Below are positions 217 through 51,960 of a stretch of DNA of 64,000 nucleotides, one piece after another (the first letter of the stretch is position 1; each line of letters opens with the position of its first letter). The notes under the pieces are model-generated. The model made no database searches and was not told the origin of the DNA. It saw only the letters and a list, made by a program, of their open reading frames with translations. The position numbers were made by a program, and so were the translations under genes. Source of the stretch: Dehalococcoidales bacterium (GTDB lineage Bacteria > Chloroflexota > Dehalococcoidia > Dehalococcoidales > UBA1222); NCBI GenBank assembly GCA_016284035.1, contig JAEEOC010000057.1, forward strand, positions 4,903 through 68,902, written 5' to 3'.

Positions 217-1938
217 TTACGATTTCTTTTCTTTATGTAATGCAGATTTGATCGTCTGGATCAAGCCATTGACATATCGAAGCTTAACAAAACTGTATGC
301 GATATCCATCTGTGACTGCTGGACGGATCTGAAACTGTTGATCTCGTCCATTTCCGGTTTGAGAGCCAGCAGCTTTTCCTGATCTCCGGACTTCATGACA
401 TCAGCGATCTTTACTTCGAGCTCCTGCGTCATCCGGATGCGCTGGATCTGAGCCCTGGACAGCTCTTCTGTCAACTGTCCATGCTTTACTTGTACCTGCA
501 TGAGCCGAATGATGGCCTCATATGTCACATCTATGATGTCATCCCTTGTCATGAGGTCTGTCTCATAATTCAAGGCATAACGCCAGGACGGACCGGTCAA
601 TGCATTCCTGTAATCTTCAAGTGTTTTACGCAATAATCGGTATCCGTGTTTTTCCGGTTCTTCATATCCCATGGATCCTGGGTCAAGGAAAGGAGACAGC
701 GGCCCGATATAAGCAAATATACGCTTGTCACTGTTGAACTTTGTCCATAGCTCATCACAGTAATCAATAGTATCCAGGACGGACTGTTTCGATTGTTTAG
801 GAAGACCGATCATAAAGAAGACTTCGATTCGGCGGACGCCCATGTTCAAAGCATCTTCAAATGTCTTTTCCATGTCTTCATTCGAATAATTGATACCGGT
901 GGCAAGCCGGACCTTGGGATCATGCGAGTTCGGAGAGATATCTAAAGAATAATTCGGGATCGACTGCGCCATCTTCTTTACATAATCTGTCGGCATCGGT
1001 TTGAAGATCTCAAACATTATCTGGTTCTTGATCTTTTCTTTGCCGAGGCGGTCAAGGAGCTCCCAGGCAAAATCTTCGCCGGCCTGGCGGATATCGCTCT
1101 CGAGTGCGATCTGTCCGCGGGATATCTTACTGGTACGGACGATATCGTTCACGATGTCATCGACAGTACGGTAGGCTGTCTCTTTTCTCGACGAATGTTT
1201 CTGCATGGCATACTTGCTACCGCCGCAGAACACACAATACTGATCACATCCTCGACATGAGAAAACACACGTTTCCGGCTGTTTCAGCCAGCCATTGAAA
1301 GGGATGATGCTCTTAAAATCTTTAAACCTCAACACCTGCTTGATCATGCCTTCATAATGTTCGTGCATGACATTACTGATATCGGTAGGCGTATTCGACA
1401 TGGGATTATGAACTACTGTACCATCCGCCTTCTTCCAGGAAAGGTTTGGGATATCAGACACATCTCCTGACTGGTACTTTGAGACTAAAAGACGCATTGG
1501 TTCCTCGGTGGAGTCTCCGCTCAGTACATAATCTACAGTCGGGAGTCTGATAAGCTCATCTTTGAAATAAGATGCGCTGAAACCGCCCATGACGACTTTT
1601 GCATCAGGATGGTACTTCTTTATGATCTCGGTAAATGCGATCGAGCCGTTGGCATGGACAAGCCAGTGAAGATCAACACCAAAGAGCGGTGCATCTAATT
1701 TGCTGATGTACTTTTCAACATCAAAAGTCTTGCTCTCAACCATGCGGAGCGCCAGATTAATGATCCTGACTTTATACCCGGATCGTCCCAGATACTCCGC
1801 AAAGCTGGTGAAACCCATGGGATACATCTCAAAGGCAGGAGTCGATGGGACCAGGTCACTGACCGGCCCGTAAAGCTGCGGGAGTTTACGGAAATCGTAA
1901 ACATGAGGAGCATGGAGGAGTATCAAATCACAGCGCAT
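217..1938 (-). CDS. B12-binding-domain radical SAM enzyme (class B rSAM), substrate unknown
   Basis: 573-aa ORF. The N-terminus resembles a cobalamin-binding domain (LILLHAPHVYDF...VVMGGFSASY). A CxxxCxxC cluster motif is present (CDQYCVFCGG). It lies 34 nt upstream of the iorA-like gene on the same strand. Confidence 0.8.
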   Translation of the reverse strand: MRCDLILLHAPHVYDFRKLPQLYGPVSDLVPSTPAFEMYPMGFTSFAEYLGRSGYKVRIINLALRMVESKTFDVEKYISKLDAPLFGVDLHWLVHANGSIAFTEIIKKYHPDAKVVMGGFSASYFKDELIRLPTVDYVLSGDSTEEPMRLLVSKYQSGDVSDIPNLSWKKADGTVVHNPMSNTPTDISNVMHEHYEGMIKQVLRFKDFKSIIPFNGWLKQPETCVFSCRGCDQYCVFCGGSKYAMQKHSSRKETAYRTVDDIVNDIVRTSKISRGQIALESDIRQAGEDFAWELLDRLGKEKIKNQIMFEIFKPMPTDYVKKMAQSIPNYSLDISPNSHDPKVRLATGINYSNEDMEKTFEDALNMGVRRIEVFFMIGLPKQSKQSVLDTIDYCDELWTKFNSDKRIFAYIGPLSPFLDPGSMGYEEPEKHGYRLLRKTLEDYRNALTGPSWRYALNYETDLMTRDDIIDVTYEAIIRLMQVQVKHGQLTEELSRAQIQRIRMTQELEVKIADVMKSGDQEKLLALKPEMDEINSFRSVQQSQMDIAYSFVKLRYVNGLIQTIKSALHKEKKS

Positions 1939-2235: not shown

Positions 2236-3708
2236 CTACAGTTCTCCTAATTTCTTTGTAATCATATCCATGACGAGATTTGCGTTAGCTCGTCCTTTAG
2301 TCAGTTTCATGACCTGTCCGACCAGGAATCTGGCGGACTGAGTCTTACCGGCCTTGTAGTCTGCTACGGCCTGAGGATTGGCGGCGATAGCATCGGCTAC
2401 GGCCTGATCGAGAGCACCTTCATCACTGATCTGGGCAAGGCCTTTCTCAGCAACGATATCCTTGGCGCTCTTGCCGGTCTTGTACATCTCATCTAAGACC
2501 TCTTTACCGGTATTAGCAGTGATGGTCTTGTTTGCAACAAGAGTGATGAGTCCGGACAGGCCTTTGACATCGACCTTCTCGGCGAAAGCTGCGATGTCAA
2601 TGGTCTCATTGTTCAGGATAGTGCTGACAGAGCCGATTACCCAGTTGGCCGCATCCTTCGATGTGGCAGGGGCCTCAAGGACTGATACCAGTTTCTCATA
2701 ATAATCTGCCATCTCACGAGTAGAGGTGAGCAGGGATGAATCATAGCTGGAAAGTGCATACTGTTCCATGAATCGGTCGCGTCGGGCGTCAGGAAGCTCA
2801 GGAAGCTTTGCTCTGACTTCTTCGACCCATTCGCGGGAAGGAGTAATAGGAGGGATATCCGGTTCAGGGAAGTATCGGTAATCGTTAGCTTCTTCTTTGC
2901 TTCGCTGGGAGACAGTCTTTCCTTCACCGTCCATCCAGCCGCGGGTCTCCTGGATGATTCGTTCGCCGGCAGCAAACATCTCGCGCTGTCGGATCTCTTC
3001 ATATGCCAGTGCCCTGAAAACACCTCGGAAACTGTTGATGTTCTTGACCTCGACCTTAGTGAGGAGCTTATCAGTTCCCTTGGGTCGGATCGAGATATTG
3101 GCATCACATCGGAAGCTTCCTTCCTCCATGGATGCATTGGAAACACCGGTGTACCAAAGGATGGATCGGAGTTTAACCAGATACTGGCGAGCCTCTTCGG
3201 GGCTGCGCATATCAGGTTCGCTCACGATCTCAAGGAGCGGCATGCCGGCTCGGTTGAAATCGATAACGGTATAAGCGGAAGAACCATGTCCATGGTGCGT
3301 CAGTTTACCTACATCCTCTTCCATGTGACATCTGTTGATACCAATCTTTCGGGTACCCTCTTCTGTATCAACAGTCAACCATCCGTGAGATCCGATAGGA
3401 AGATCATACTGGGAGATCTGATAACCCTTAACAAGGTCAGGATAGTTATAGTTCTTTCGATCAAACTTGGTGAACTCTGCTACATGACAATTGAGAGCGA
3501 GAGCCGTCATCATTGCATATTCGACAGCCTGTTTATTGACGGTCGGCAAAGACCCCGGCATACCAAGACATACTGGGCATACATGGGTATTAGGTGCGGC
3601 GTTGACATAGTCAGCATCGCATCGGCAGTACATCTTGCTCTTGGTTTTCAGCTGAGCGTGGACTTCTAAGCCAATAATAGTTTCGTAATCATCAAAATTG
3701 TATGACAT
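2236..3708 (-). CDS. gatB: Asp-tRNA(Asn)/Glu-tRNA(Gln) amidotransferase subunit B
   Basis: 490 aa with the N-terminus YETIIGLEVHAQLKTKSKMYC.C, a PVCLGMPGSLP motif and a C-terminal YqeY-like tail (GQVMKLTKGRANA). Confidence 0.95.
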   Translation of the reverse strand: MSYNFDDYETIIGLEVHAQLKTKSKMYCRCDADYVNAAPNTHVCPVCLGMPGSLPTVNKQAVEYAMMTALALNCHVAEFTKFDRKNYNYPDLVKGYQISQYDLPIGSHGWLTVDTEEGTRKIGINRCHMEEDVGKLTHHGHGSSAYTVIDFNRAGMPLLEIVSEPDMRSPEEARQYLVKLRSILWYTGVSNASMEEGSFRCDANISIRPKGTDKLLTKVEVKNINSFRGVFRALAYEEIRQREMFAAGERIIQETRGWMDGEGKTVSQRSKEEANDYRYFPEPDIPPITPSREWVEEVRAKLPELPDARRDRFMEQYALSSYDSSLLTSTREMADYYEKLVSVLEAPATSKDAANWVIGSVSTILNNETIDIAAFAEKVDVKGLSGLITLVANKTITANTGKEVLDEMYKTGKSAKDIVAEKGLAQISDEGALDQAVADAIAANPQAVADYKAGKTQSARFLVGQVMKLTKGRANANLVMDMITKKLGEL

Positions 3709-3789: not shown

Positions 3790-3819
3790 TTGACACCGTA
3801 TTTACGCTATAGCTAGAAT
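3790..3819 (+). promoter_or_regulatory. Candidate sigma70-type promoter for the 3847 gene
   Basis: TTGACA (3790-3795), an 18-nt spacer, then TAGAAT (3814-3819). Confidence 0.35.
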
Positions 3820-3846: not shown

Positions 3847-6453
3847 ATGGTGAATAAAATGAAACTATCGTTTTCTACTCTGGGATGCCCAGATTTCAGC
3901 TGGGACAACATATTTGCGATGACGAAGGACCTTGGATTCGACGGAATCGAAGTCCGCGGTCTTGGCAACGACATCTTCTCCGTCAAAGCTCAGCCTTTCA
4001 CCAAAGCAGAGCTTAGCAACACCATTCGCAACCTTAGAGATGCCAATATCGAGATCTGCTGCCTTTCCAGCGGCACGAGCCTTAAATATCCCGAAAAGAC
4101 CCAACAGGCTATCGACGAGCTTACTCAGTATATCGAGCTGGCGGCAAAATTAGGCACGCCATATATTCGAGTGCTCGGCGACGAAAATGGTGTCGTCGAA
4201 GGGGAAGTCGACGACGAGCTGGTCCTTTCGACTTTGAAGAAACTGGCTCCTATCGCAGAAAAGAACAATGTCGTGCTGCTCGTTGAAACAAACGGCGTAT
4301 ATTCAGATACGAAACGTCTGTTTAATCTGCTGACCCGCGCCAGCAGCGATAATATCGCCGCACTTTGGGATATCCAGCATCCATATCGAAACTTCAACGA
4401 ATCCGTCGATACCACCATCCAAAATCTGGGCGGTTTCATCAAACACGTCCACATCAAGGATTCGGTCGTGATCGACGGCAAACTGGAATACCGCTTCATG
4501 GGCGAAGGCGACATGCCGATCGCTGAGATAATCGAAGCTCTCCGCTGCATCGATTACGACGGATATCTGTCCTTAGAATGGCTGAAACGTTGGATGCCCG
4601 AACTAGACAATGCCGGCGTGGTCTTCCCTGCATATATCAACTACATGTCTCAGTTCTTCCAGAAGGATGCTTCCGGCACTGAGGATGCCGCCGCATCCCG
4701 TCATCTCGACGTGGACCCCTCTCTCATGGCCAAAGAAGTCGGGGTCCTCTACGACAACAACGCCAAGACAGGTAAATACGTTTGGGAAAAGGAAAAACTG
4801 GTCGACTATACGTTCCCTCAGGTCCTCGACCGCATGGTCAAAGAATTCCCTGATCAAATCGCTTTCAAATATACCGAAATGGATTACACCAGGACCTACA
4901 AAGAATTCCGCGACGATGTCGACGAGTTCGCACGCACCCTCATCGCTTTAGGCGTGAGACCCGGTTCCCATGTCGCCATCTGGGCAACCAATGTCCCGGC
5001 CTGGTACATCTCTTTCTGGGCTACAACCAAGATCGGGGCCGTACTCGTTACCGTCAACACTCTATACAGGAACCATGAGATCGAATACCTTCTGAAACAA
5101 TCAGATACCCATACTTTGATCGCAATCAACGGATTCAAGGATATCGATTATCTGGGCATCATGGACCAGTTGAATCCGGAGCTGGCAACAGCAGAAGATC
5201 CGACAAACCTCCACCTGGCAAGACTTCCGTTCCTAAGGAACATCATCTCCGTCGATGGTCCTCACCCCGGCTGTATCAGCTGGGATGATGCACTGAAGAT
5301 GGGTAAATCCGTTCCCGTCGAGGAAGTCTATAAACGTGCAGCCAACATCAACAAGCATGATGTCTGCAACATGCAGTATACCTCCGGCACAACAGGTTTC
5401 CCCAAGGGCGTCATGCTCACTCATTTCAACGTAGTCAATAACGGCAAATGCATCGGCGACTGCATGGACCTGTCCACCGCGGACAGGATGATGATTCATG
5501 TCCCTATGTTCCACTGTTTCGGCATGGTCCTCGCCATGACAGCATGTGTCACCCACGGCGTCACCATGTGCCCAATCACAGCATTCTCACCAAGAAAGTC
5601 TCTGGCTTGTATCGACTCCGAAAAGATCACCGCTTTCCATGGCGTCCCTACCATGTTCATTGCCATGATGAGCCATGAGAACTTCTCCAAGACCGACTTC
5701 TCTCATATGCGAACCGGCATCATGGCAGGCTCGCCTTGTCCGATCCAGACCATGCAGGAAGTGGTGGACAAGATGCATATGACACAGATCTCCATCGTCT
5801 ATGGACAGACCGAAGCTTCTCCTGGCTGTACCCAGAGCCGCGTTTCCGACTCTCTCGAGAGACGAGTGAATACCGTCGGTACCAACCTGCCGGCCGTAGA
5901 ATGCAAGATCGTAAATCCCGAGACCAATGAGGAAGTACCCGATGGCACCATCGGTGAATTCGTCGCTCGCGGTTATAACATCATGAAAGGCTATTACAAG
6001 ATGCCTCAGGCCACGGCTGCCGCCATCGATAAGAACGGGTGGCTGCATACCGGCGACCTCGCCATGCGTGATAAAGACGGCTATTACAAGATCACCGGCC
6101 GAATCAAAGACATGGTCATCCGCGGCGGTGAAAATATCTATCCCAAAGAGATCGAAGACTTCATCTATACTTACCCCAAAGTCTCCGACGTCCAGATCGT
6201 CGGCGTTCCCGACGAACAATACGGCGAAGAATTACTTGCCTGTGTGATCCTTAAGGAAGGCGTCGAAGCAACTGAAGACGAGATCAAAGACTATGTCCGC
6301 GCCAACATGGCCAAACACAAAGTCCCTCGTTATGTCAGATTCGTCGATAGCTTCCCCATGAATGCCGCCGGCAAGATTCTTAAATTCAAGATGCGTGAAC
6401 AGGCTATCGATATGCTGGGCCTGCGTCACGCCAGCAATATCAAAACAGCATAA
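3847..6453 (+). CDS. Fusion protein: xylose-isomerase-like TIM barrel (sugar-phosphate isomerase/epimerase superfamily) + AMP-forming acyl-CoA synthetase/ligase
   Basis: Single 868-aa frame. Residues 5 to about 275 look like an AP-endonuclease-2/xylose-isomerase-like TIM barrel (LSFSTLGC...VLLVETNG...LSLEW). Residues from about 320 to 868 form a complete ANL enzyme (YTSGTTGFPKGVMLTH, GWLHTGD, RGGENIYPKEIE, AGKILKFKMRE). The start could also be the ATG at 3859. Confidence 0.85.
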   Translation: MVNKMKLSFSTLGCPDFSWDNIFAMTKDLGFDGIEVRGLGNDIFSVKAQPFTKAELSNTIRNLRDANIEICCLSSGTSLKYPEKTQQAIDELTQYIELAAKLGTPYIRVLGDENGVVEGEVDDELVLSTLKKLAPIAEKNNVVLLVETNGVYSDTKRLFNLLTRASSDNIAALWDIQHPYRNFNESVDTTIQNLGGFIKHVHIKDSVVIDGKLEYRFMGEGDMPIAEIIEALRCIDYDGYLSLEWLKRWMPELDNAGVVFPAYINYMSQFFQKDASGTEDAAASRHLDVDPSLMAKEVGVLYDNNAKTGKYVWEKEKLVDYTFPQVLDRMVKEFPDQIAFKYTEMDYTRTYKEFRDDVDEFARTLIALGVRPGSHVAIWATNVPAWYISFWATTKIGAVLVTVNTLYRNHEIEYLLKQSDTHTLIAINGFKDIDYLGIMDQLNPELATAEDPTNLHLARLPFLRNIISVDGPHPGCISWDDALKMGKSVPVEEVYKRAANINKHDVCNMQYTSGTTGFPKGVMLTHFNVVNNGKCIGDCMDLSTADRMMIHVPMFHCFGMVLAMTACVTHGVTMCPITAFSPRKSLACIDSEKITAFHGVPTMFIAMMSHENFSKTDFSHMRTGIMAGSPCPIQTMQEVVDKMHMTQISIVYGQTEASPGCTQSRVSDSLERRVNTVGTNLPAVECKIVNPETNEEVPDGTIGEFVARGYNIMKGYYKMPQATAAAIDKNGWLHTGDLAMRDKDGYYKITGRIKDMVIRGGENIYPKEIEDFIYTYPKVSDVQIVGVPDEQYGEELLACVILKEGVEATEDEIKDYVRANMAKHKVPRYVRFVDSFPMNAAGKILKFKMREQAIDMLGLRHASNIKTA

Positions 6454-6458
6454 TCGGG

Positions 6459-7292
6459 GTGAAGAAAATGGATACTAAAAGAATTTTAACGATTCAGGAC
6501 ATCTCCTGCGTCGGCCAGTGCTCATTGACAGTGGCGCTGCCGATCATTTCCGCATGCGGTGTCGAGACCTGCATCCTTCCGTCTGCAGTGCTTTCGACTC
6601 ATACCGCCGGGTTTACCGGTTTTACCGTACGAGACCTGGCAGATGATATGCCGGCCATCGAAAAGCACTGGGTCAAAGAGGGGATTTTCTTTGATGCCGT
6701 GTATACCGGTTACCTTGGCAGTAAAGAGCAGATCGATTACGTCTCCAGCATTATCAAAAACACCTGCAAAGGCCCTGCTATCATCGATCCGGCCATGGCA
6801 GACAACGGCAAACTCTATCCGGCATTTGATATGGCCTACGTCAATGAAATGAAAAAGCTCTGCTTCAGTGCCGATGTAGTGCTTCCCAATATCACAGAAG
6901 CATGCTTCCTGACCGGCGTCGAATACAAAGAAATCTACGATGAGTCTTACATCAAGGGCATCGTCAATGCTTTGCTTGCCAGCGGAGCCAAAGCGGTCGT
7001 TCTGACAGGTGTAGGCTATACTCCGGATACTACAGGTGTCGTCGTTGCAACCAAAGACAGCTACTATTACTACAGACATCATCGCTATGCAAAATCCTGT
7101 CACGGAACAGGCGACGTCTATGCATCCGCATTTGTCGGAGCCTACATGAACGGACGTTCTATGGAAGATGCTGCCAGGATTGCAGCTGACTTCACTGTCA
7201 AATGCATGGAGAACACACTCGATGACGCTTCTCACTGGTATGGTGTCAAATTTGAACCCATCCTTAAGCAGCTGTCACAGATGATCGGTTAA
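6459..7292 (+). CDS. pdxK: Pyridoxal/pyridoxamine kinase (ribokinase superfamily)
   Basis: 277 aa with ILTIQDISCVGQCSLTVALPI, YTGYLGS and the C-terminal GTGDVYASAF anion-hole motif. Starts at GTG 6459 or ATG 6468. Confidence 0.8.
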   Translation: MKKMDTKRILTIQDISCVGQCSLTVALPIISACGVETCILPSAVLSTHTAGFTGFTVRDLADDMPAIEKHWVKEGIFFDAVYTGYLGSKEQIDYVSSIIKNTCKGPAIIDPAMADNGKLYPAFDMAYVNEMKKLCFSADVVLPNITEACFLTGVEYKEIYDESYIKGIVNALLASGAKAVVLTGVGYTPDTTGVVVATKDSYYYYRHHRYAKSCHGTGDVYASAFVGAYMNGRSMEDAARIAADFTVKCMENTLDDASHWYGVKFEPILKQLSQMIG

Positions 7293-7352: not shown

Positions 7353-7444
7353 GGGGAGTTCGCATAGTGGTCTAGTGCGGTCGCCTGCTAAGCGATTACC
7401 AATAGAAATATTGGTCGAGGGTTCAAATCCCTCACTCCCCGCCA
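7353..7444 (+). tRNA. tRNA-Ser (anticodon GCU), CCA encoded
   Basis: Hand-folded. The acceptor stem is GGGGAGT/ACTCCCC and the anticodon arm is GTCGC-CTGCTAA-GCGAT. A long variable arm (ACCAATA/TATTGGT) and the T arm GAGGG-TTCAAAT-CCCTC follow, with discriminator G plus CCA. Confidence 0.9.
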
Positions 7445-7507: not shown

Positions 7508-10500
7508 TTGCTTATGAAGACTTATCGCGCTGGTATCGATGTAGGATCAACGACGGTTAAGCTCGTCATTCTCGGTGAAGATGACGAGATACTTTTTCAC
7601 GCCTATGACAGGCATCATGCCCATACCCAAAAGACACTGGCCGGGCTCCTCCAGCAGACCAAAGCTGCTTTAGGAGAATGTAGTCTTAAGATTGGCATCA
7701 CCGGTTCAGGTTCCATCAATCTGGCCAAATCTCTCGAGATCCAGTTCGTACAGGAAGTCGTAGCTGTTGCTACGGCATTAAAGAAGTATTATCCCCAGAC
7801 CGATGTGGCAATCGAGCTCGGCGGAGAAGACGCCAAGATCATCTATTTTAAGGGTGGTCTGGACGAGAGAATGAACGGAGTATGCGCCGGCGGAACAGGC
7901 TCGTTCATCGATCAGATGGCAGCACTCCTGCAGACCGATGCGGCAGGACTAAATGAAGCCGCCAAGGATTACAAAGAACACTATACCATCGCGGCCCGCT
8001 GCGGTGTCTTCGCTAAATCAGATATTCAACCTCTCATTAATGAAGGTGCAACACGTCCCGATCTGGCAGCATCCATCTTCCAATCAGTGGTCAACCAGAC
8101 CATCTCCGGTCTTGCCTGCGGTAAACCTATCAGGGGTTGTGTCGCTTTCCTGGGAGGACCCTTACACTTCCTGACTGAACTGAAGGCGGCTTTTATCAGG
8201 ACACTTAAACTTGGACCGGACGCTATCGTCGATCCCGAAAACTCCCATCTCTTTGCAGCCCTGGGAGCCGCTCTTGAAAATCCTTCTGAAAAAAGCTGCA
8301 ATATCGACGACCTCATCTCGACTCTCGAAAAAGGCGTTACGCTCGAATTTGAGATCAAAAGGCTTGCTCCGTTATTCGACAATGAAGCCGATTATGAAGC
8401 TTTCAAGCTTCGACATCAGCAGCACAAAGTGAAAAAGGCCGATATCTCCACTTACTCCGGTCCTTGCTTTCTGGGCATCGACGCCGGTTCCACCACGACC
8501 AAACTGGCCCTCATCGATCAGGACGGCAGTCTCTTATGGTCTTATTACGACAATAACCATGGCAGCCCTATAAAGACTACGATGGCGGCACTGGCTGACC
8601 TGAAAGCAGTCCTTCCTTCCGATTCCCAGATTGTCAGATCATGTTCTACAGGCTATGGCGAAGCACTCCTCAAAGCCGCGTTCCGTCTGGATGAAGGTGA
8701 AGTCGAAACAGTGGCACACTGCGTGGCAGCTGAATTCTTCGATCCCAATGTCGACTGTGTACTCGATATCGGCGGGCAGGACATGAAATGCATACGCTTG
8801 AAAAACCATACCGTCGACAGTGTGATGCTGAACGAGGCATGTTCTTCAGGATGCGGATCCTTCATCGAGAATTTTGCCAATTCCCTCAATTATTCCGCAG
8901 CCGGATTTGCTAAGGAAGCGTTGTATGCAAAGCACCCCGTCGATCTAGGGACCCGCTGCACCGTATTTATGAACTCAAACGTCAAACAGGCGCAAAAAGA
9001 AGGTGCGACCATTTCCGATATCTCGGCAGGTCTTGCATACTCTGTTATCAAGAACGCCCTGTTCAAAGTGATCAAACTGTCCAGTGCTAAAGACCTTGGT
9101 TCACACATCGTTGTCCAGGGTGGAACATTCTATAACCACGCCGTTCTGAGAGCCTTTGAAAAGATCTCTGATGTAGAAGTGATCTGTCCGGACATCTCCG
9201 GCATCATGGGTGCTTTTGGCGCCGCTCTTATCGCACGCCGTCATTACACTGGACAATGCACCACCATGATGACTTTCGACCAGGTCCAGGAACTGACCTA
9301 TGACACCAAAACTACCCGCTGCGGAGGATGTGAGAACAACTGTATCCTGACCATCAATATCTTCTCGGGCGACCGCCGCTACATTTCCGGCAACCGCTGC
9401 GAAAAGGTCGTCAAGAACAGCTCCATCGTAGAACCGGGCCCCAACCTCGTTGAATTCAAGAAGAACCGCATCTTCGATTATGAATCACTTTCCGAGGAGG
9501 AGGCCCCCCGCGGAATCATCGGCATCCCCAGAGTTCTCAATATCTACGAAAACTATCCGTTCTGGGCCACGTTCTTCAAAGAATTGGGTTTCAGGGTCAT
9601 CCTTTCCCCCTTCTCGACCCGCAATATATATGAACTCGGCATGGAATCAATACCGTCAGAATCCGAATGTTATCCTGCCAAGATCTCCCACGGTCACGTC
9701 CAGTGGCTGATCAACAGCGGTATAAAGACCATCTTCTATCCATGCGTCTTTTACGAGTTCCAGGAGACACCGGATGCCCAAAACCACTATAACTGCCCCA
9801 TGGTCGTAGCTTATCCCGAGAACATCAAAAACAATGTTGAAGATATCTCGGCGGAAAACATCCGTTTCATCCGTCCGTTCATTGCGCTCACCAGCGAAAA
9901 GACTGCCTCTGACAGATTAGAGATGCTGTGTGCAAAGGAATGGGGCATCCCAGCATCCGAGGTACAGAAGGCCGTACACGCAGCATGGATCGAGCAGCGA
10001 AAAGCTAAAGACGACATCCGTGAAGAAGGCACTCGTCTGCTTAAGGAAATGGAAGAGAAGCATAAGAAAGGCATCGTACTGGCGGGCCGCCCGTATCATG
10101 TCGATCCTGAGATCAACCACGGTATTCCCGAACTGATCTCATCTTACGGCTTCTATGTTTTCTCCGAAGACAGTCTCCCTCTGCAGGAAAGGCCGGAACG
10201 TCCCATCAGGGTCGTGGATCAGTGGGTATTCCATTCACGACTGTATGCAGCTGCCGAATTCGTAACTAACAGAGACGATCTTGAGCTCATACAGACATTC
10301 TCTTTCGGGTGCGGTCTTGACGCGGTCACGACTGACCAGGTCAGCGAGATCCTTGAAAAATCCAATAAGCTTTATACCCTCCTGAAGATCGACGAAGTAA
10401 ACAACCTTGGGGCTGCCAGGATCCGCATCAGAAGTCTTTTAGCCGCCATCAAGATGCGCGAAGAGGAAAATATCAAAGCCAAACCGACCTCTATCGCATA

Positions 10501-11743
10501 TAATCGTGCCGAATTCACCAAACAGATGTTCGACGAAGGTTATACGATCATCGCTCCCAACATGAGTCCCATCCATTTCAGCCTGCTGGAAGCCGTTTTC
10601 AGAAAACGAGGATTTAACGCCGTCGTACTGGACAACACCCATCAGGGCGCTATCGACTGCGGCCTGCAGTACGTCAATAACGACGCATGTTATCCTTCGA
10701 TCTTGTCCGTCGGACAGATCATGGAAGCCGTCATGTCCGGCAAATATGATACGAACAAACTGGCTATCCTCATGTCCCAGACAGGCGGATGCTGCCGTGC
10801 CAGCAATTATGTCAGCTTCATCCGCAGAGCCCTGGACAAGGCTGGACTGTCCCATATCCCTGTCATATCCTTCAATACCAACGGGATGGAAAAGAACGAG
10901 GGATTCAAACTGTCTCTGCCCATGTTCGTCGAGGGCCTGAGAGCAGCAGTCTGCGGCGATCTCCTGATGAGATGTCTGTATAAGACTCGTCCGTATGAGG
11001 TCGAACCGGGCTCAGCCAATGCTTTACATAAAAAATGGGAACAGGCATTTTTCGATTTTACCAAGGGAACGCCCGGACACTTAAGCTTTGACAAGATCTG
11101 TCAGGGGATCGTGAAAGACTTTGACGAGCTTCCGATCCACGAAGACCTCAAGAAACCTCGCGTCGGTATCGTCGGAGAGATTCTGGTAAAATACATGCCC
11201 CTTGCCAACAATAATCTCGTAGACCTGCTGGAGAAGGAAGGTGCCGAAGCAGTAGTGCCGGATCTCCTGGACTTCTTCATCGAAGGTTTTTACGGCAAGG
11301 ATTACAAACATAAATATCTGGGAGAATCCTGGAAATCATCGGTCATCGCACGTTTCGGGACAGGTCTCCTAGGCTGGGTTCGCAAGCCTGCTGTCAAAGC
11401 ACTCAAGAAGAGCAAACGCTTCGAGCCTCCCATGCCCATGGAACACATCGCTGAGATGGCAAAACCTTTCCTGTCCATCGGCAACCAGTACGGTGAAGGG
11501 TGGTTCCTGACCGGCGAGATGGCAGAGCTATTGACAGAAAACGTGCCCAATATCGTCTGTGTCCAGCCCTTTGCATGCCTGCCGAACCATGTGGTCGGCA
11601 AGGGTGTGATCAAGGCTTTGAGAAATAAGTATCCACAGGCCAACATCGTCGCTATCGACTATGATCCGGGAGCAAGTGAAGTCAACCAACTCAACAGGTT
11701 ATCACTGATGCTCTCGACCGCAAAAAAGAACTTGGAGAAATAA
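7508..11743 (+). CDS. Two BadF/BadG/BcrA/BcrD-type activase ATPase domains fused to a 2-hydroxyacyl-CoA-dehydratase-like/DUF2229-like module (PlsA/PlsR-like architecture)
   Basis: 1411 aa. There are two acetate/sugar-kinase-fold ATPase repeats (GIDVGSTTVKLVIL... and GIDAGSTTTKLALI..., each followed by an ELGGQD/DIGGQD motif). Cys-rich segments follow (RCGGCENNC, CYPAK, NDACYP, QPFACLPNH). TTG at 7508 or ATG at 7514. Confidence 0.85.
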   Translation: MLMKTYRAGIDVGSTTVKLVILGEDDEILFHAYDRHHAHTQKTLAGLLQQTKAALGECSLKIGITGSGSINLAKSLEIQFVQEVVAVATALKKYYPQTDVAIELGGEDAKIIYFKGGLDERMNGVCAGGTGSFIDQMAALLQTDAAGLNEAAKDYKEHYTIAARCGVFAKSDIQPLINEGATRPDLAASIFQSVVNQTISGLACGKPIRGCVAFLGGPLHFLTELKAAFIRTLKLGPDAIVDPENSHLFAALGAALENPSEKSCNIDDLISTLEKGVTLEFEIKRLAPLFDNEADYEAFKLRHQQHKVKKADISTYSGPCFLGIDAGSTTTKLALIDQDGSLLWSYYDNNHGSPIKTTMAALADLKAVLPSDSQIVRSCSTGYGEALLKAAFRLDEGEVETVAHCVAAEFFDPNVDCVLDIGGQDMKCIRLKNHTVDSVMLNEACSSGCGSFIENFANSLNYSAAGFAKEALYAKHPVDLGTRCTVFMNSNVKQAQKEGATISDISAGLAYSVIKNALFKVIKLSSAKDLGSHIVVQGGTFYNHAVLRAFEKISDVEVICPDISGIMGAFGAALIARRHYTGQCTTMMTFDQVQELTYDTKTTRCGGCENNCILTINIFSGDRRYISGNRCEKVVKNSSIVEPGPNLVEFKKNRIFDYESLSEEEAPRGIIGIPRVLNIYENYPFWATFFKELGFRVILSPFSTRNIYELGMESIPSESECYPAKISHGHVQWLINSGIKTIFYPCVFYEFQETPDAQNHYNCPMVVAYPENIKNNVEDISAENIRFIRPFIALTSEKTASDRLEMLCAKEWGIPASEVQKAVHAAWIEQRKAKDDIREEGTRLLKEMEEKHKKGIVLAGRPYHVDPEINHGIPELISSYGFYVFSEDSLPLQERPERPIRVVDQWVFHSRLYAAAEFVTNRDDLELIQTFSFGCGLDAVTTDQVSEILEKSNKLYTLLKIDEVNNLGAARIRIRSLLAAIKMREEENIKAKPTSIAYNRAEFTKQMFDEGYTIIAPNMSPIHFSLLEAVFRKRGFNAVVLDNTHQGAIDCGLQYVNNDACYPSILSVGQIMEAVMSGKYDTNKLAILMSQTGGCCRASNYVSFIRRALDKAGLSHIPVISFNTNGMEKNEGFKLSLPMFVEGLRAAVCGDLLMRCLYKTRPYEVEPGSANALHKKWEQAFFDFTKGTPGHLSFDKICQGIVKDFDELPIHEDLKKPRVGIVGEILVKYMPLANNNLVDLLEKEGAEAVVPDLLDFFIEGFYGKDYKHKYLGESWKSSVIARFGTGLLGWVRKPAVKALKKSKRFEPPMPMEHIAEMAKPFLSIGNQYGEGWFLTGEMAELLTENVPNIVCVQPFACLPNHVVGKGVIKALRNKYPQANIVAIDYDPGASEVNQLNRLSLMLSTAKKNLEK

Positions 11744-50391: not shown

Positions 50392-51960
50392 ATGACTATT
50401 GTAGATATGCTGATCAATAATGCGCGCAATTATCCTGATAAAGTTGCGTTGGTAGAACTCGCTCCGACAGCAGGGATCCGCAAAGAAGTGACATGGAAGG
50501 AACTTGAGCAGGGTTCCGCAAAACTGGCGTCCGCTCTGATCAGAGCTGGCATCAAAAAGGACGATAAAGTTCTCCATTTCATGACCAACTCCATCACTTG
50601 GCTCGAAGCTTATTTCGGCATCATCAGGACTGGTGCGTGGGCAGTTCCTTTGAATTACCGTTTCAATGCTAAGGACTTCCTCTATTGCGCACAGGTCTCC
50701 GAAGCCCGTATGCTCATCATGGGTCAGGCTTTCGTCGACCGTGTCATGAGCGTCAAGAATCATCTTACCTATCTTGAGAAGATGATCGTCGTGGACGATC
50801 AAGCTACTGATGATCTGATCCTTTATAAGGATTTCATCGCCACCGGCGACCCCAATGATGAACTTTATGTCCCCAAGAGCGACGATGTCTGCGGACTGTA
50901 TTTTACTTCCGGCACCACAGGCGATCCCAAGCCTATTGTACTGCCCCATAAGAACATGGAACATGCTGCAAAGGCTGAACAGATGCATCATATGCAGACC
51001 ATCGATGATAATTTCATGCTCATCCCGCCGCTGTATCACTGCGGCGCCAAGATGCACTGGTTCGGCAGTCTCATGACCGCCTCCAAGGCTGTCCTTCTCA
51101 ACGAAGTCAGCCCCAAGACCATCATCGAGACCATGTCCAAGGAAAAATGCACCATCGCCTGGCTCCTGGTCCCCTGGGCCCAGGACATCCTTGTTGCACT
51201 GGACAAAGGCGAGATAAAACTAGAAGATTATGACTTAAAACAGTGGCGGCTCATGCATATTGGCGCACAGCCTGTCCCCAAGAGCCTTATCATGCACTGG
51301 AAAGATTACTTCCCCGATATGCTCTATGACACCAATTACGGCCTCAGTGAATGCACCGGCCCCGGCTGTGTACATCTGGGAGTAGAGAACATCCACAAGG
51401 TCGGTGCCATCGGCGTCCCCGGTTATGGCTGGGAATGCAAGATCGTCGACAAGGACATGAATCCTGTCAAACAGGGGGAAGTGGGCGAACTCCTACTTCG
51501 CGGTGACGGTGTCATGCGTGAATATTATAAGAATCCTAAGAAGACCGCCGAGACCATCATGCCGGACGGTTTCCTGCGCACTGGCGATGTGGCAAAGATG
51601 GACGAAGACGGATTCATCTATCTGGTAGACAGGATCAAAGACCTCATCATCGTAGGCGGTGAGAACGTCTATCCTGTCGAAGTGGAAGATATGATCCGCA
51701 CCAATCCAGCCGTTCTGGATGTCGCCGTCATCGGTGTCCCAGATGACAGACTGGGAGAGATCGTAGTCGCCATCATCAAGACCAAACCTGGCATGGAGCT
51801 CTCCAATGATGAGATCAAGGCCTTCTGCGATATCCGACTGCCCAGATATAAGCGTCCCAGGATCTTTGTTTTCGGTGAGGTCATGCGTAACCCCACCGGT
51901 AAGATAGAGAAACCTAAGATGCGCGAGAAATATGCTTATCTGGCAAATACCGCTAAATAA
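50392..51960 (+). CDS. AMP-forming acyl-CoA synthetase/ligase (ANL superfamily)
   Basis: 522 aa with FTSGTTGDPKPIVLPH, YGLSECTG, FLRTGD, VGGENVYPVEVE and GKIEKPKMRE. Confidence 0.9.
   Translation: MTIVDMLINNARNYPDKVALVELAPTAGIRKEVTWKELEQGSAKLASALIRAGIKKDDKVLHFMTNSITWLEAYFGIIRTGAWAVPLNYRFNAKDFLYCAQVSEARMLIMGQAFVDRVMSVKNHLTYLEKMIVVDDQATDDLILYKDFIATGDPNDELYVPKSDDVCGLYFTSGTTGDPKPIVLPHKNMEHAAKAEQMHHMQTIDDNFMLIPPLYHCGAKMHWFGSLMTASKAVLLNEVSPKTIIETMSKEKCTIAWLLVPWAQDILVALDKGEIKLEDYDLKQWRLMHIGAQPVPKSLIMHWKDYFPDMLYDTNYGLSECTGPGCVHLGVENIHKVGAIGVPGYGWECKIVDKDMNPVKQGEVGELLLRGDGVMREYYKNPKKTAETIMPDGFLRTGDVAKMDEDGFIYLVDRIKDLIIVGGENVYPVEVEDMIRTNPAVLDVAVIGVPDDRLGEIVVAIIKTKPGMELSNDEIKAFCDIRLPRYKRPRIFVFGEVMRNPTGKIEKPKMREKYAYLANTAK

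Follow-up and report, generated by a model that had tools for sequence, protein, structure and literature searches.

A fusion of a TIM barrel and an acyl-CoA ligase, conserved in anaerobic bacteria and often preceded by leucine T-box leaders, is a candidate for activating leucine-skeleton acids

A 64,000-nucleotide (nt) stretch of contig JAEEOC010000057.1 (positions 4,903 to 68,902, forward strand; assembly GCA_016284035.1, Dehalococcoidales bacterium), which is referred to below as the window, carries on its forward strand a gene that joins a xylose-isomerase-like TIM barrel to a complete acyl-coenzyme A (CoA) ligase of the ANL adenylate-forming superfamily. Comparison with homologues confirms that this gene is a genuine fusion and that it encodes two competent-looking catalytic modules. 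It belongs to a large family of mainly anaerobic Clostridia and other Bacillota. Relatives of the two halves also occur as adjacent separate genes, and many members of the family are preceded by T-box leaders whose specifier codon reads leucine. The role that we favour, with about as much doubt as confidence, is that the ligase half attaches CoA to isovalerate or to another acid with the leucine carbon skeleton.

Results

One open frame encodes both enzymes

The original prediction had described a single uninterrupted frame of 868 codons (3847-6453), and both the open reading frame (ORF) list and the translation agree with it. The frame is indeed open from ATG 3847, but the more likely start is ATG 3859, since GGTGA lies 6 nt 5′ of it, the MKLSF start is common to every homologue aligned and the identical (100%) protein at NCBI (P0001 in our numbering) is 864 amino acids (aa) long and begins with MKLSF. 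The probable coding sequence therefore spans 3859-6453 and encodes 864 aa followed by a stop. Three Pfam domains were found in the product: PF01261 (AP_endonuc_2) at aa 24-249 (E 3.8e-32, 112.4 bits against a cutoff of 31.1), PF00501 (AMP-binding) at aa 328-717 (E 1.7e-92, 310.7 bits against 29.9) and PF13193 (AMP-binding_C) at aa 768-843 (70 bits against 24.5).

The two enzymes are separated by a linker (4663-4794) for which pLDDT is below 50 in both AlphaFold2 (AF2) models, that of the half and that of the full-length protein. As the original prediction had it, the joint contains no stop, and the sole Met there (4727) comes after CCCCTCTCTC. Alignment of homologues revealed that 63 nt of the linker (4675-4737) encode a 21-aa insertion, GTEDAAASRHLDVDPSLMAKE, that is limited to the window protein and its 80%-identical relative at locus L171 (loci are given by our numbers throughout); in the common 843-aa form of the fusion this insertion is absent, and the barrel joins the ligase almost directly. 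The segment that follows the insertion, LYDNNAKTGKYVWEK, is kept in fusions and missing from stand-alone ligases, which can be aligned only from KLVDYTF on.

The fusion is widespread in anaerobic Bacillota

We searched ~5.8 billion proteins with the window protein and took the 120 best matches. All 120 have the PF01261, PF00501 and PF13193 architecture (842-864 aa, 67-100% identity), and their names are only “AMP-binding protein” or “fatty-acyl-CoA synthase”; “long-chain-fatty-acid--CoA ligase” is also used in databases. A genome scan, with one genome per species, produced at least 598 matching stretches, of which 80 loci were kept for inspection. Each of the 80 encodes the whole fusion (residues ~5-868, 63-68% identity), including four that had been overlooked by ORF calling and that were re-checked as intact fusions, each a single high-scoring segment pair. 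The kept loci come from Oscillospiraceae, Lachnospiraceae, Ruminococcus, Christensenellaceae, Acetivibrio, Anaerobacterium, Dehalobacter, Pelotomaculum and Alkaliphilus. Anaerobic digesters are among the carrier habitats, and the cultured carriers include Acetivibrio cellulolyticus, Pseudobacteroides cellulosolvens, Dehalobacter restrictus, Formimonas warabiya, Hydrogenispora ethanolica and Ruminiclostridium herbifermentans. The barrel half diverges faster than the ligase half (~57-60% against ~73-75% identity), and the catalytic residues of both are invariant among 38 aligned fusions.

It had been considered at the outset that such an architecture might turn out to be common and already characterised. 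Common it is, but a literature search of limited reach, made by architecture, by representative accessions and by T-box targets, found nothing on the fusion family.

The cluster of proteins at least 90% identical to the window protein contains MBR6331582.1, also labelled as coming from a “Dehalococcoidales bacterium” metagenome-assembled genome, and the relatives at 70% identity or less are all from Bacillota. The Dehalococcoidales label amid Bacillota relatives could reflect horizontal transfer or a mislabelled bin.

The halves also occur as adjacent genes in the reverse order

Four stand-alone barrels were looked up, and two of them were found directly 3′ of a stand-alone ligase of 553-554 aa. 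The ligases of these two pairs are 54-58% identical to the ligase half of the window protein over the full length, including the unusual C-terminal ...IETA tail. We then used stand-alone barrels as seeds for a metagenome scan, which retrieved 80 loci: ~46 fusions, 14 pairs with the orthologous ligase gene upstream, 5 loci with this ligase ~1.8-2 kb upstream and ~20 loci without it. In 16 split loci (the 14 metagenome pairs plus L085 and L086), the ligase gene lies 36-187 nt upstream of a co-oriented barrel gene; the ligases are 54-61% identical over the full length and the barrels 41-46%.

Orthologues of both halves are thus present elsewhere as separate, adjacent and co-oriented genes, the pattern on which the Rosetta-stone argument relies. 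Together with the uniform architecture of the homologues, this bears out the claim that two normally separate modules have been truly fused. The split genes run in the opposite order to the domains of the fusion, ligase first and barrel second; a simple read-through therefore does not account for the fusion, and the linkage has either arisen or persisted in two forms. The split pairs are evidence independent of the fusion, and the predicted cooperation of the two halves is therefore independently backed by genomic sequence.

A second arrangement of the barrel is kept in human-gut and other metagenome contigs (L094, L095, L120 and L100), in which a class-IV aminotransferase gene is followed by genes for a stand-alone barrel, a 580-aa ANL protein (24-26% identical) and a dehydrogenase resembling 6-phosphogluconate dehydrogenase. 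T-boxes were not detected in these four aminotransferase clusters. Partners of the barrel family therefore come from two ANL subfamilies, that of the PRK12583-like ligase and that of the 580-aa ANL protein.

Other genes were seen next to split or stand-alone barrels. In five split operons (L098, L108, L115, L122 and L133) a gene for an Amidohydro_2 protein (PF04909) of ~265 aa lies 3′ of the barrel gene, the gap being sometimes only 3 nt; the Amidohydro_2 protein may be a third enzyme of the pathway. Genes for PfkB kinases adjoin the stand-alone barrel in L085 and L096. When the neighbours of 79 fusion loci were clustered, no recurrent neighbour was found, the largest neighbour family being present at 4 of the 79. 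No shikimate/quinate or catecholate-siderophore genes were found near the fusion (in the window and at the 79 fusion loci) or near the split loci.

Leucine T-box leaders precede the ligase genes of many hosts

An RNA-family scan was made because of the large upstream gaps in R. herbifermentans and at other loci. It revealed 18 T-boxes (RF00230) at the Rfam gathering level, and all 18 lie directly 5′ of a fusion gene (L001, L061, L029, L004, L016, L021, L058, L103, L147 and L166), of the ligase gene of a split operon (L098, L107, L108, L115 and L118) or of a lone ligase orthologue (L168, L169 and L170). No other T-box was present in the ~370 kb scanned with Rfam. Counts beyond these 18 leaders are based on a regular expression for the T-box core, AGUGGUACC(A/G)CG, and on MAFFT alignment. 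The core was found upstream of 74 of 127 fusion loci and 10 of ~17 split loci, and all three lone-ligase loci have a T-box.

A strict regular expression for the specifier failed in most leaders, after which the specifier was read from 86 leaders aligned to the Rfam-confirmed ones. In 78 of the 86 it is a leucine codon (CUC in 72, CUG in 5, CUU in 1). The other eight comprise one UUC, two leaders that are seemingly misaligned and five that were clipped in extraction, four of which read CUC by eye. The leucine reading frame is supported by the fact that the third-base variation is synonymous; this variation and the UGGU bulge, which pairs with discriminator base A73, fit tRNA-Leu. In most hosts, expression of the family would be induced by uncharged tRNA-Leu, to judge from the leaders. 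The UUC (Phe) codon occupies the specifier column in the leader of the L112 fusion (~5680); this leader may have switched its specificity or be in decay.

A leuA T-box responding to tRNA-Leu(GAG) has been described (PMC2700814). With the leucine T-box regulon (leuS, the ilv-leu operon and leuA) the homologues share canonical leaders, CUC/CUG/CUU specifiers and the UGGU bulge; the window copy differs in being without a T-box, none having been found by Rfam in the whole window or by the core expression 5′ of the fusion gene. No acyl-CoA ligase or TIM barrel was named among the T-box targets in the regulon surveys covered by our limited literature search. CodY boxes were not enriched 5′ of loci without a T-box (6 of 49, against ~3.4 expected from shuffled sequences).

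Several further features were noted at these loci. A gene of the homocysteine S-methyltransferase family (PF02574, 437-440 aa) lies 3′ of the lone ligase with a leucine T-box in L169 (8225-9547) and L170 (7713-9026), and in L168 and L169 an 88-aa ORF without a Pfam match directly follows the lone ligase. Other Rfam elements near homologous loci are TwoAYGGAY RNA, the ZMP/ZTP riboswitch, the glmS ribozyme and M-box riboswitches (L001 16334-16492, L012 3877-3988, L029 1004-1246, L085 12153-12320 and L169 62-230); none of them adjoins the fusion gene.

The ligase half is a complete ANL module

The ligase half (4795-6450, forward strand) contains both subdomains of an ANL acyl-CoA ligase, PF00501 and PF13193. 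Every core motif that had been quoted for it was found there. The motif search located YTSGTTGFPKG (A3) at 5377-5409, YGQTE (A5) at 5800-5814, GWLHTGD (A7) at 6037-6057, GRIKDMVIRGGENIYPKEIE (the A8 hinge) at 6097-6156 and PMNAAGKILKF (A10, with the catalytic Lys) at 6355-6387. All five, including the A10 Lys, are invariant in the 38 homologues. With both Pfam subdomains above cutoff and the core motifs complete, the protein belongs to the ANL superfamily, and formation of an acyl-adenylate and then of a CoA thioester is the chemistry expected of it.

Among NCBIfam models the ligase half is matched end to end (model positions 12-556 of 558) by NF009233 (PRK12583, fatty acid CoA ligase family), with 712.1 bits against a curated cutoff of 832. 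Stand-alone synthetases of this type, which presumably include Bacillus subtilis YngI and human ACSF2, have the same full set of core motifs; they are without the TIM barrel and without LYDNNAKTGKYVWEK, both of which the fusion has, and the fusion family is set apart by its leucine T-box control in most hosts. The best matches in the PDB are CoA synthetases of the feruloyl-/fatty-acyl-, malonyl- and FadD13 types (E 5e-77 and weaker), and they cover mainly the C-terminal two-thirds of the ligase half.

The ligase gene at 50392-51960, which had been put forward as an unfused paralogue, is only 30% identical to the ligase half and belongs to another ANL subfamily; we therefore rejected it as the unfused counterpart.

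The barrel half resembles AsbF and MJ1311 and retains a predicted metal site

The barrel half (3859-4662, forward strand) was recognised as a xylose-isomerase-like (beta/alpha)8 barrel by PF01261, by AF2 and by Foldseek. The AF2 model of this half has a pLDDT of 85, a pTM of 0.85 and the expected strand/helix alternation, and in a Foldseek search of the PDB it matched more than 40 members of the superfamily with a probability of 1.0 (TM 0.65-0.78, 14-22% identity). Of the solved relatives, AsbF ranked first in a profile search with the barrel family (E 3.3e-20, full length), ahead of MJ1311 (7e-16), a protein without an assigned function, and Art22 (2e-15). In the Foldseek ranking AsbF is fourth and has the highest identity (22%). 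A 50%-clustered library contains 3226 relatives of the barrel at E of 1e-3 or below, many of them stand-alone proteins of 265-280 aa with 33-52% identity.

Twelve barrel residues are invariant in the fusions (numbers follow the 868-aa form): C14, E35, R108, E147, N149, D175, H178, H202, K204, D205, E244 and R248. Alignment to AsbF and MJ1311 places a Glu-Asp-His-Glu metal tetrad at E147/D175/H202/E244, equivalent to E142, D172, H198 and E253 of AsbF; it is invariant in fusions and nearly so in stand-alone relatives. A loss of the metal-binding residues of active TIM-barrel members from the N-terminal half had been named as a result that would speak against a functional fusion; by alignment, the predicted site is intact. 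On these sequence grounds the barrel is a predicted metal-dependent enzyme of the AsbF/MJ1311 type.

The active centre of AsbF comprises Y70, R102, E142, H144, D172, H175, H198, K200, F211, Y217 and E253 (PMC9324987). F211 and Y217 have no reliable alignment to the barrel and were left out; seven of the remaining nine are kept (R102, E142, D172, H175, H198, K200 and E253). The other two are replaced: AsbF His144 corresponds to invariant Asn149 and Tyr70 to near-invariant Gly76. Because of these two replacements we do not assign the barrel to the AsbF-type 3-dehydroshikimate dehydratases. The resemblance to AsbF (PDB 3DX5), MJ1311 (3WQO) and Art22 (8Z1I) consists in the metal ligands, the equivalents of R108, H178 and K204 and an SLEW motif in the barrel, at an identity of only ~18-22%. 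AsbF, moreover, is a stand-alone protein encoded in a siderophore cluster, with its partner AsbC a separate protein, whereas the window barrel is fused to its ligase.

The best NCBIfam match of the barrel is FrlC fructoselysine 3-epimerase (52.3 bits against a cutoff of 305), followed by IolO 5-keto-L-gluconate epimerase (46 bits), UlaE-type epimerases and hydroxypyruvate isomerase. The barrel reached no NCBIfam equivalog cutoff (PsicseEpim, 26 against 300) and matched no curated dehydratase model, and the curated scores place it outside the ketose 3-epimerase families (FrlC, DTE/DPE, UlaE). With the ketose and keto-acid 3-epimerases and isomerases (FrlC, IolO, UlaE/SgbU, D-tagatose/psicose 3-epimerase, hydroxypyruvate isomerase) it shares the fold, the Glu-Asp-His-Glu site and the two catalytic Glu residues, and many of its Foldseek matches are among these enzymes; it differs from them in that no conserved sugar-utilisation genes surround the fusion or the split loci. 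We know of no ketose epimerase or isomerase of this superfamily that is fused to, or paired with, an adenylating enzyme.

Genes around the fusion in the window

A sigma-70-type promoter-like site, TTGACA-18-TAGAAT (11 of 12 consensus matches), is present at 3790-3819 on the forward strand, and the leader that follows it measures ~35-40 nt, which is too short for a T-box. The fusion gene lies just 138 bp from the divergent gatB gene (2236-3708, reverse strand), beyond which a B12-binding radical SAM protein of the TIGR04190 family is encoded (217-1938, reverse strand; 607 bits against a cutoff of 500).

As had been stated, a gene for a PdxK-like kinase (6459-7292, forward strand) follows 6 nt downstream of the fusion; NCBIfam identifies it as PRK07105, “pyridoxamine kinase” (273.9 bits against 231). 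It is probably co-transcribed with the fusion gene. In L171, whose fusion gene likewise has a short leader, the kinase gene (4052-4489) again follows the fusion, with a stop/start overlap and an 80%-identical product, and it is not found beside the 843-aa Bacillota fusions. Kinase adjacency, which is kept only in the lineage of the window (the window and L171), was set aside as a functional clue; the same lineage is the one without a T-box and with the linker insertion. Farther downstream on the forward strand, a 92-nt tRNA-Ser(GCU) gene (7353-7444) lies between the kinase gene and an ORF of 1411 aa (7508-11743) with two BcrAD/BadFG-type ATPase domains, DUF2229 and a weak HGD-D match, which we take to resemble the fused PlsA/PlsR-type plasmalogen synthase of anaerobes. 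With the tRNA gene in between, this ORF is probably a separate transcription unit.

Discussion

With induction by leucine starvation expected in most hosts, the product presumably serves to supply leucine or to save it. Ruminococci and other cellulolytic and gut Clostridia depend on branched-chain volatile fatty acids or make use of them, and ruminococci are known to require isovalerate; isovaleryl-CoA can be reductively carboxylated to 2-oxoisocaproate, which on transamination yields leucine. According to PMC7356843, with reference to Allison (1962, 1966), isovalerate is directly carboxylated and then aminated to leucine in rumen anaerobes, and methanogens use isovalerate for leucine likewise (PMC10658910). 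The host range of the fusion (Ruminococcus, Oscillospiraceae, Lachnospiraceae, Acetivibrio, anaerobic digesters) matches isovalerate-rich habitats.

We infer the substrate, the downstream pathway and the barrel reaction as follows. The ligase would adenylate a short acid with the leucine skeleton, most likely isovalerate (3-methylbutanoate), and form its CoA thioester. A 2-oxoacid:ferredoxin oxidoreductase would then turn this acyl-CoA into 2-oxoisocaproate by reductive carboxylation, and transamination would give leucine (the “isovalerate carboxylation” route); in addition, the same acyl-CoA may prime iso-branched fatty acids, which would spare leucine. In most hosts a T-box leader sensing uncharged tRNA-Leu would switch the gene on, while the copy in the window, without such a leader, would depend on a plain promoter and be paired with the PdxK-like kinase. 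By analogy with its relatives, the barrel probably abstracts a proton from the carbon beside a carbonyl, as an epimerase, isomerase or dehydratase would; its target would be the same carbon skeleton, either in an oxygenated precursor that is yet to be activated or in the thioester once it is formed.

The nearest functional precedent is MbcS of Bacillota, an ATP-dependent ligase that salvages branched short acids (PMC10026030). As known from Staphylococcus aureus, this methylbutyryl-CoA synthetase (PMC10026030, PMC11167679) is likewise an ANL enzyme that turns extracellular branched short-chain acids into anabolic acyl-CoA. It differs in being a single-domain, acetyl-CoA-synthetase-like protein that prefers 2-methylbutyrate and isobutyrate, isovalerate being a poor substrate, and in that its product goes into fatty-acid synthesis and not into leucine; neither a TIM barrel nor a T-box has been reported for it.

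Several observations weigh against the proposed role. The acid substrate is not predictable from the sequence of an ANL enzyme, and the one model that covers the ligase half end to end, whose cutoff it does not reach, is generic. About 40% of the fusion loci, including those of the window and of Dehalobacter, are without a T-box. None of 22 barrel-only loci has the T-box core upstream by regular expression, and in GCA_026414765.1, where the barrel gene lies ~75 kb from the ligase gene, a T-box leader is found at the ligase only; with leaders at lone ligases and not at lone barrels, the leucine signal belongs to the ligase. Among the 79 fusion loci, neither an oxidoreductase nor a transaminase gene is a conserved neighbour. 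Isovalerate, moreover, offers no group on which a metal-dependent enolising barrel could act, and the barrel is left unexplained: either the real substrate has an extra oxygen function (a 2-hydroxy, 2-oxo or dihydroxy acid) or the barrel works on the thioester. The full-length AF2 model (pLDDT 65, pTM 0.50) is too poor to reveal an interface between the domains.

A bolder form of the proposal covers both halves: the family would be the missing entry enzyme of the isovalerate-to-leucine route, and the barrel would perform a metal-assisted enolisation new to its superfamily and coupled to the ligase, namely epimerisation, isomerisation or dehydration of the acyl thioester or of an oxo- or hydroxy-acid with the leucine skeleton. 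Physical coupling of this kind, if true, would explain why the barrel stands beside two unrelated ANL subfamilies. We consider that both parts hold together possible but unlikely.

Another proposal, to which we give a rather slim chance, has the ligase act first and the barrel second, on a 2-substituted acyl-CoA such as 2-hydroxyisocaproyl-CoA. The thioester carbonyl and the adjacent hydroxyl would chelate the metal in the way that the C2=O and C3-OH of the substrate do in ketose 3-epimerases, and at C2 the barrel would carry out an epimerisation, isomerisation or dehydration that depends on the thioester and would be new to the superfamily. The intact Glu-Asp-His-Glu site with its two invariant acid/base Glu residues is consistent with such chemistry, as is the fact that the best curated resemblances of the barrel are to ketose and keto-acid 3-epimerases (FrlC, IolO, UlaE). 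The presence of the barrel with two ANL subfamilies suggests action on activated acyl groups in general, and the Amidohydro_2 hydrolase encoded after the barrel in five split operons could release the product. However, chemical analogy is the entire basis of this proposal, the barrel is common without a nearby ligase (~20 loci), and we know of no thioester-dependent barrel of the xylose-isomerase-like superfamily.

The original prediction had the barrel produce or isomerise an acid for the ligase to activate, with AsbF and AsbC as an analogy only. On this reading, which likens the barrel to AsbF in its dehydration of 3-dehydroshikimate to protocatechuate, the fusion would channel two steps of a pathway unconnected with leucine. 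Part of this stands: the split pairs argue that the halves cooperate, and the comparison with AsbF is better founded than first claimed, since AsbF is the best solved relative by profile and most of its alignable active-centre residues are kept. The aromatic-acid order, AsbF and then AsbC, fits poorly, however. His144 and Tyr70 of AsbF are replaced, control by tRNA-Leu is unsuited to an aromatic acid, shikimate, quinate and siderophore genes are missing from among the neighbours, and the best NCBIfam matches are epimerases and isomerases far below their cutoffs rather than any curated dehydratase. We regard this explanation as improbable.

We also assign a low probability to a generic medium- or long-chain fatty-acid CoA ligase that serves lipid uptake, with the barrel as a passenger or the fusion inconsequential. 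The database names and the top NCBIfam models, which are fatty-acid ligase families, speak for it, but the names are automatic annotation. A leucine-specific T-box would be unexpected for a general lipid ligase, fusions with as little as 63% identity still share the catalytic residues of the barrel, and the adjacency recurs in split form with the order reversed. Finally, an assembly or sequencing artefact, in which a lost stop or an indel fused two neighbouring genes, is a general possibility for a metagenome-assembled contig with a lineage-specific low-complexity insertion at the joint, but it is effectively refuted by the identical in-frame architecture of hundreds of independent assemblies, complete genomes among them (R. 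herbifermentans CP061336, Dehalobacter, A. cellulolyticus and P. cellulosolvens), by the same in-frame insertion in L171 and by the reversed gene order of split genomes, from which read-through could not yield the window protein.

The two domains are members of familiar superfamilies, and public databases already contain the fusion under generic names. What is new is the combination: an ANL ligase, a conserved AsbF/MJ1311-like barrel that is fused to it or encoded next to it, and control by leucine. The names “AMP-binding protein” and “long-chain-fatty-acid--CoA ligase” are probably misleading for annotation. The barrel is an unexplained partner enzyme, the chemistry of which may be new.

Activation of isovalerate by the ligase half would link the family to an old unsolved step in the physiology of anaerobes, in a route described ~60 years ago. 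To our knowledge, the genes for this activation step in ruminococci and similar Clostridia have not been pinned down. With its conservation in hundreds of anaerobe species and its leucine-sensing riboregulator, the family provides a concrete and testable candidate for that step. If this role is true, the gene would be a marker for cross-feeding of branched-chain acids in rumen, gut and digester communities.

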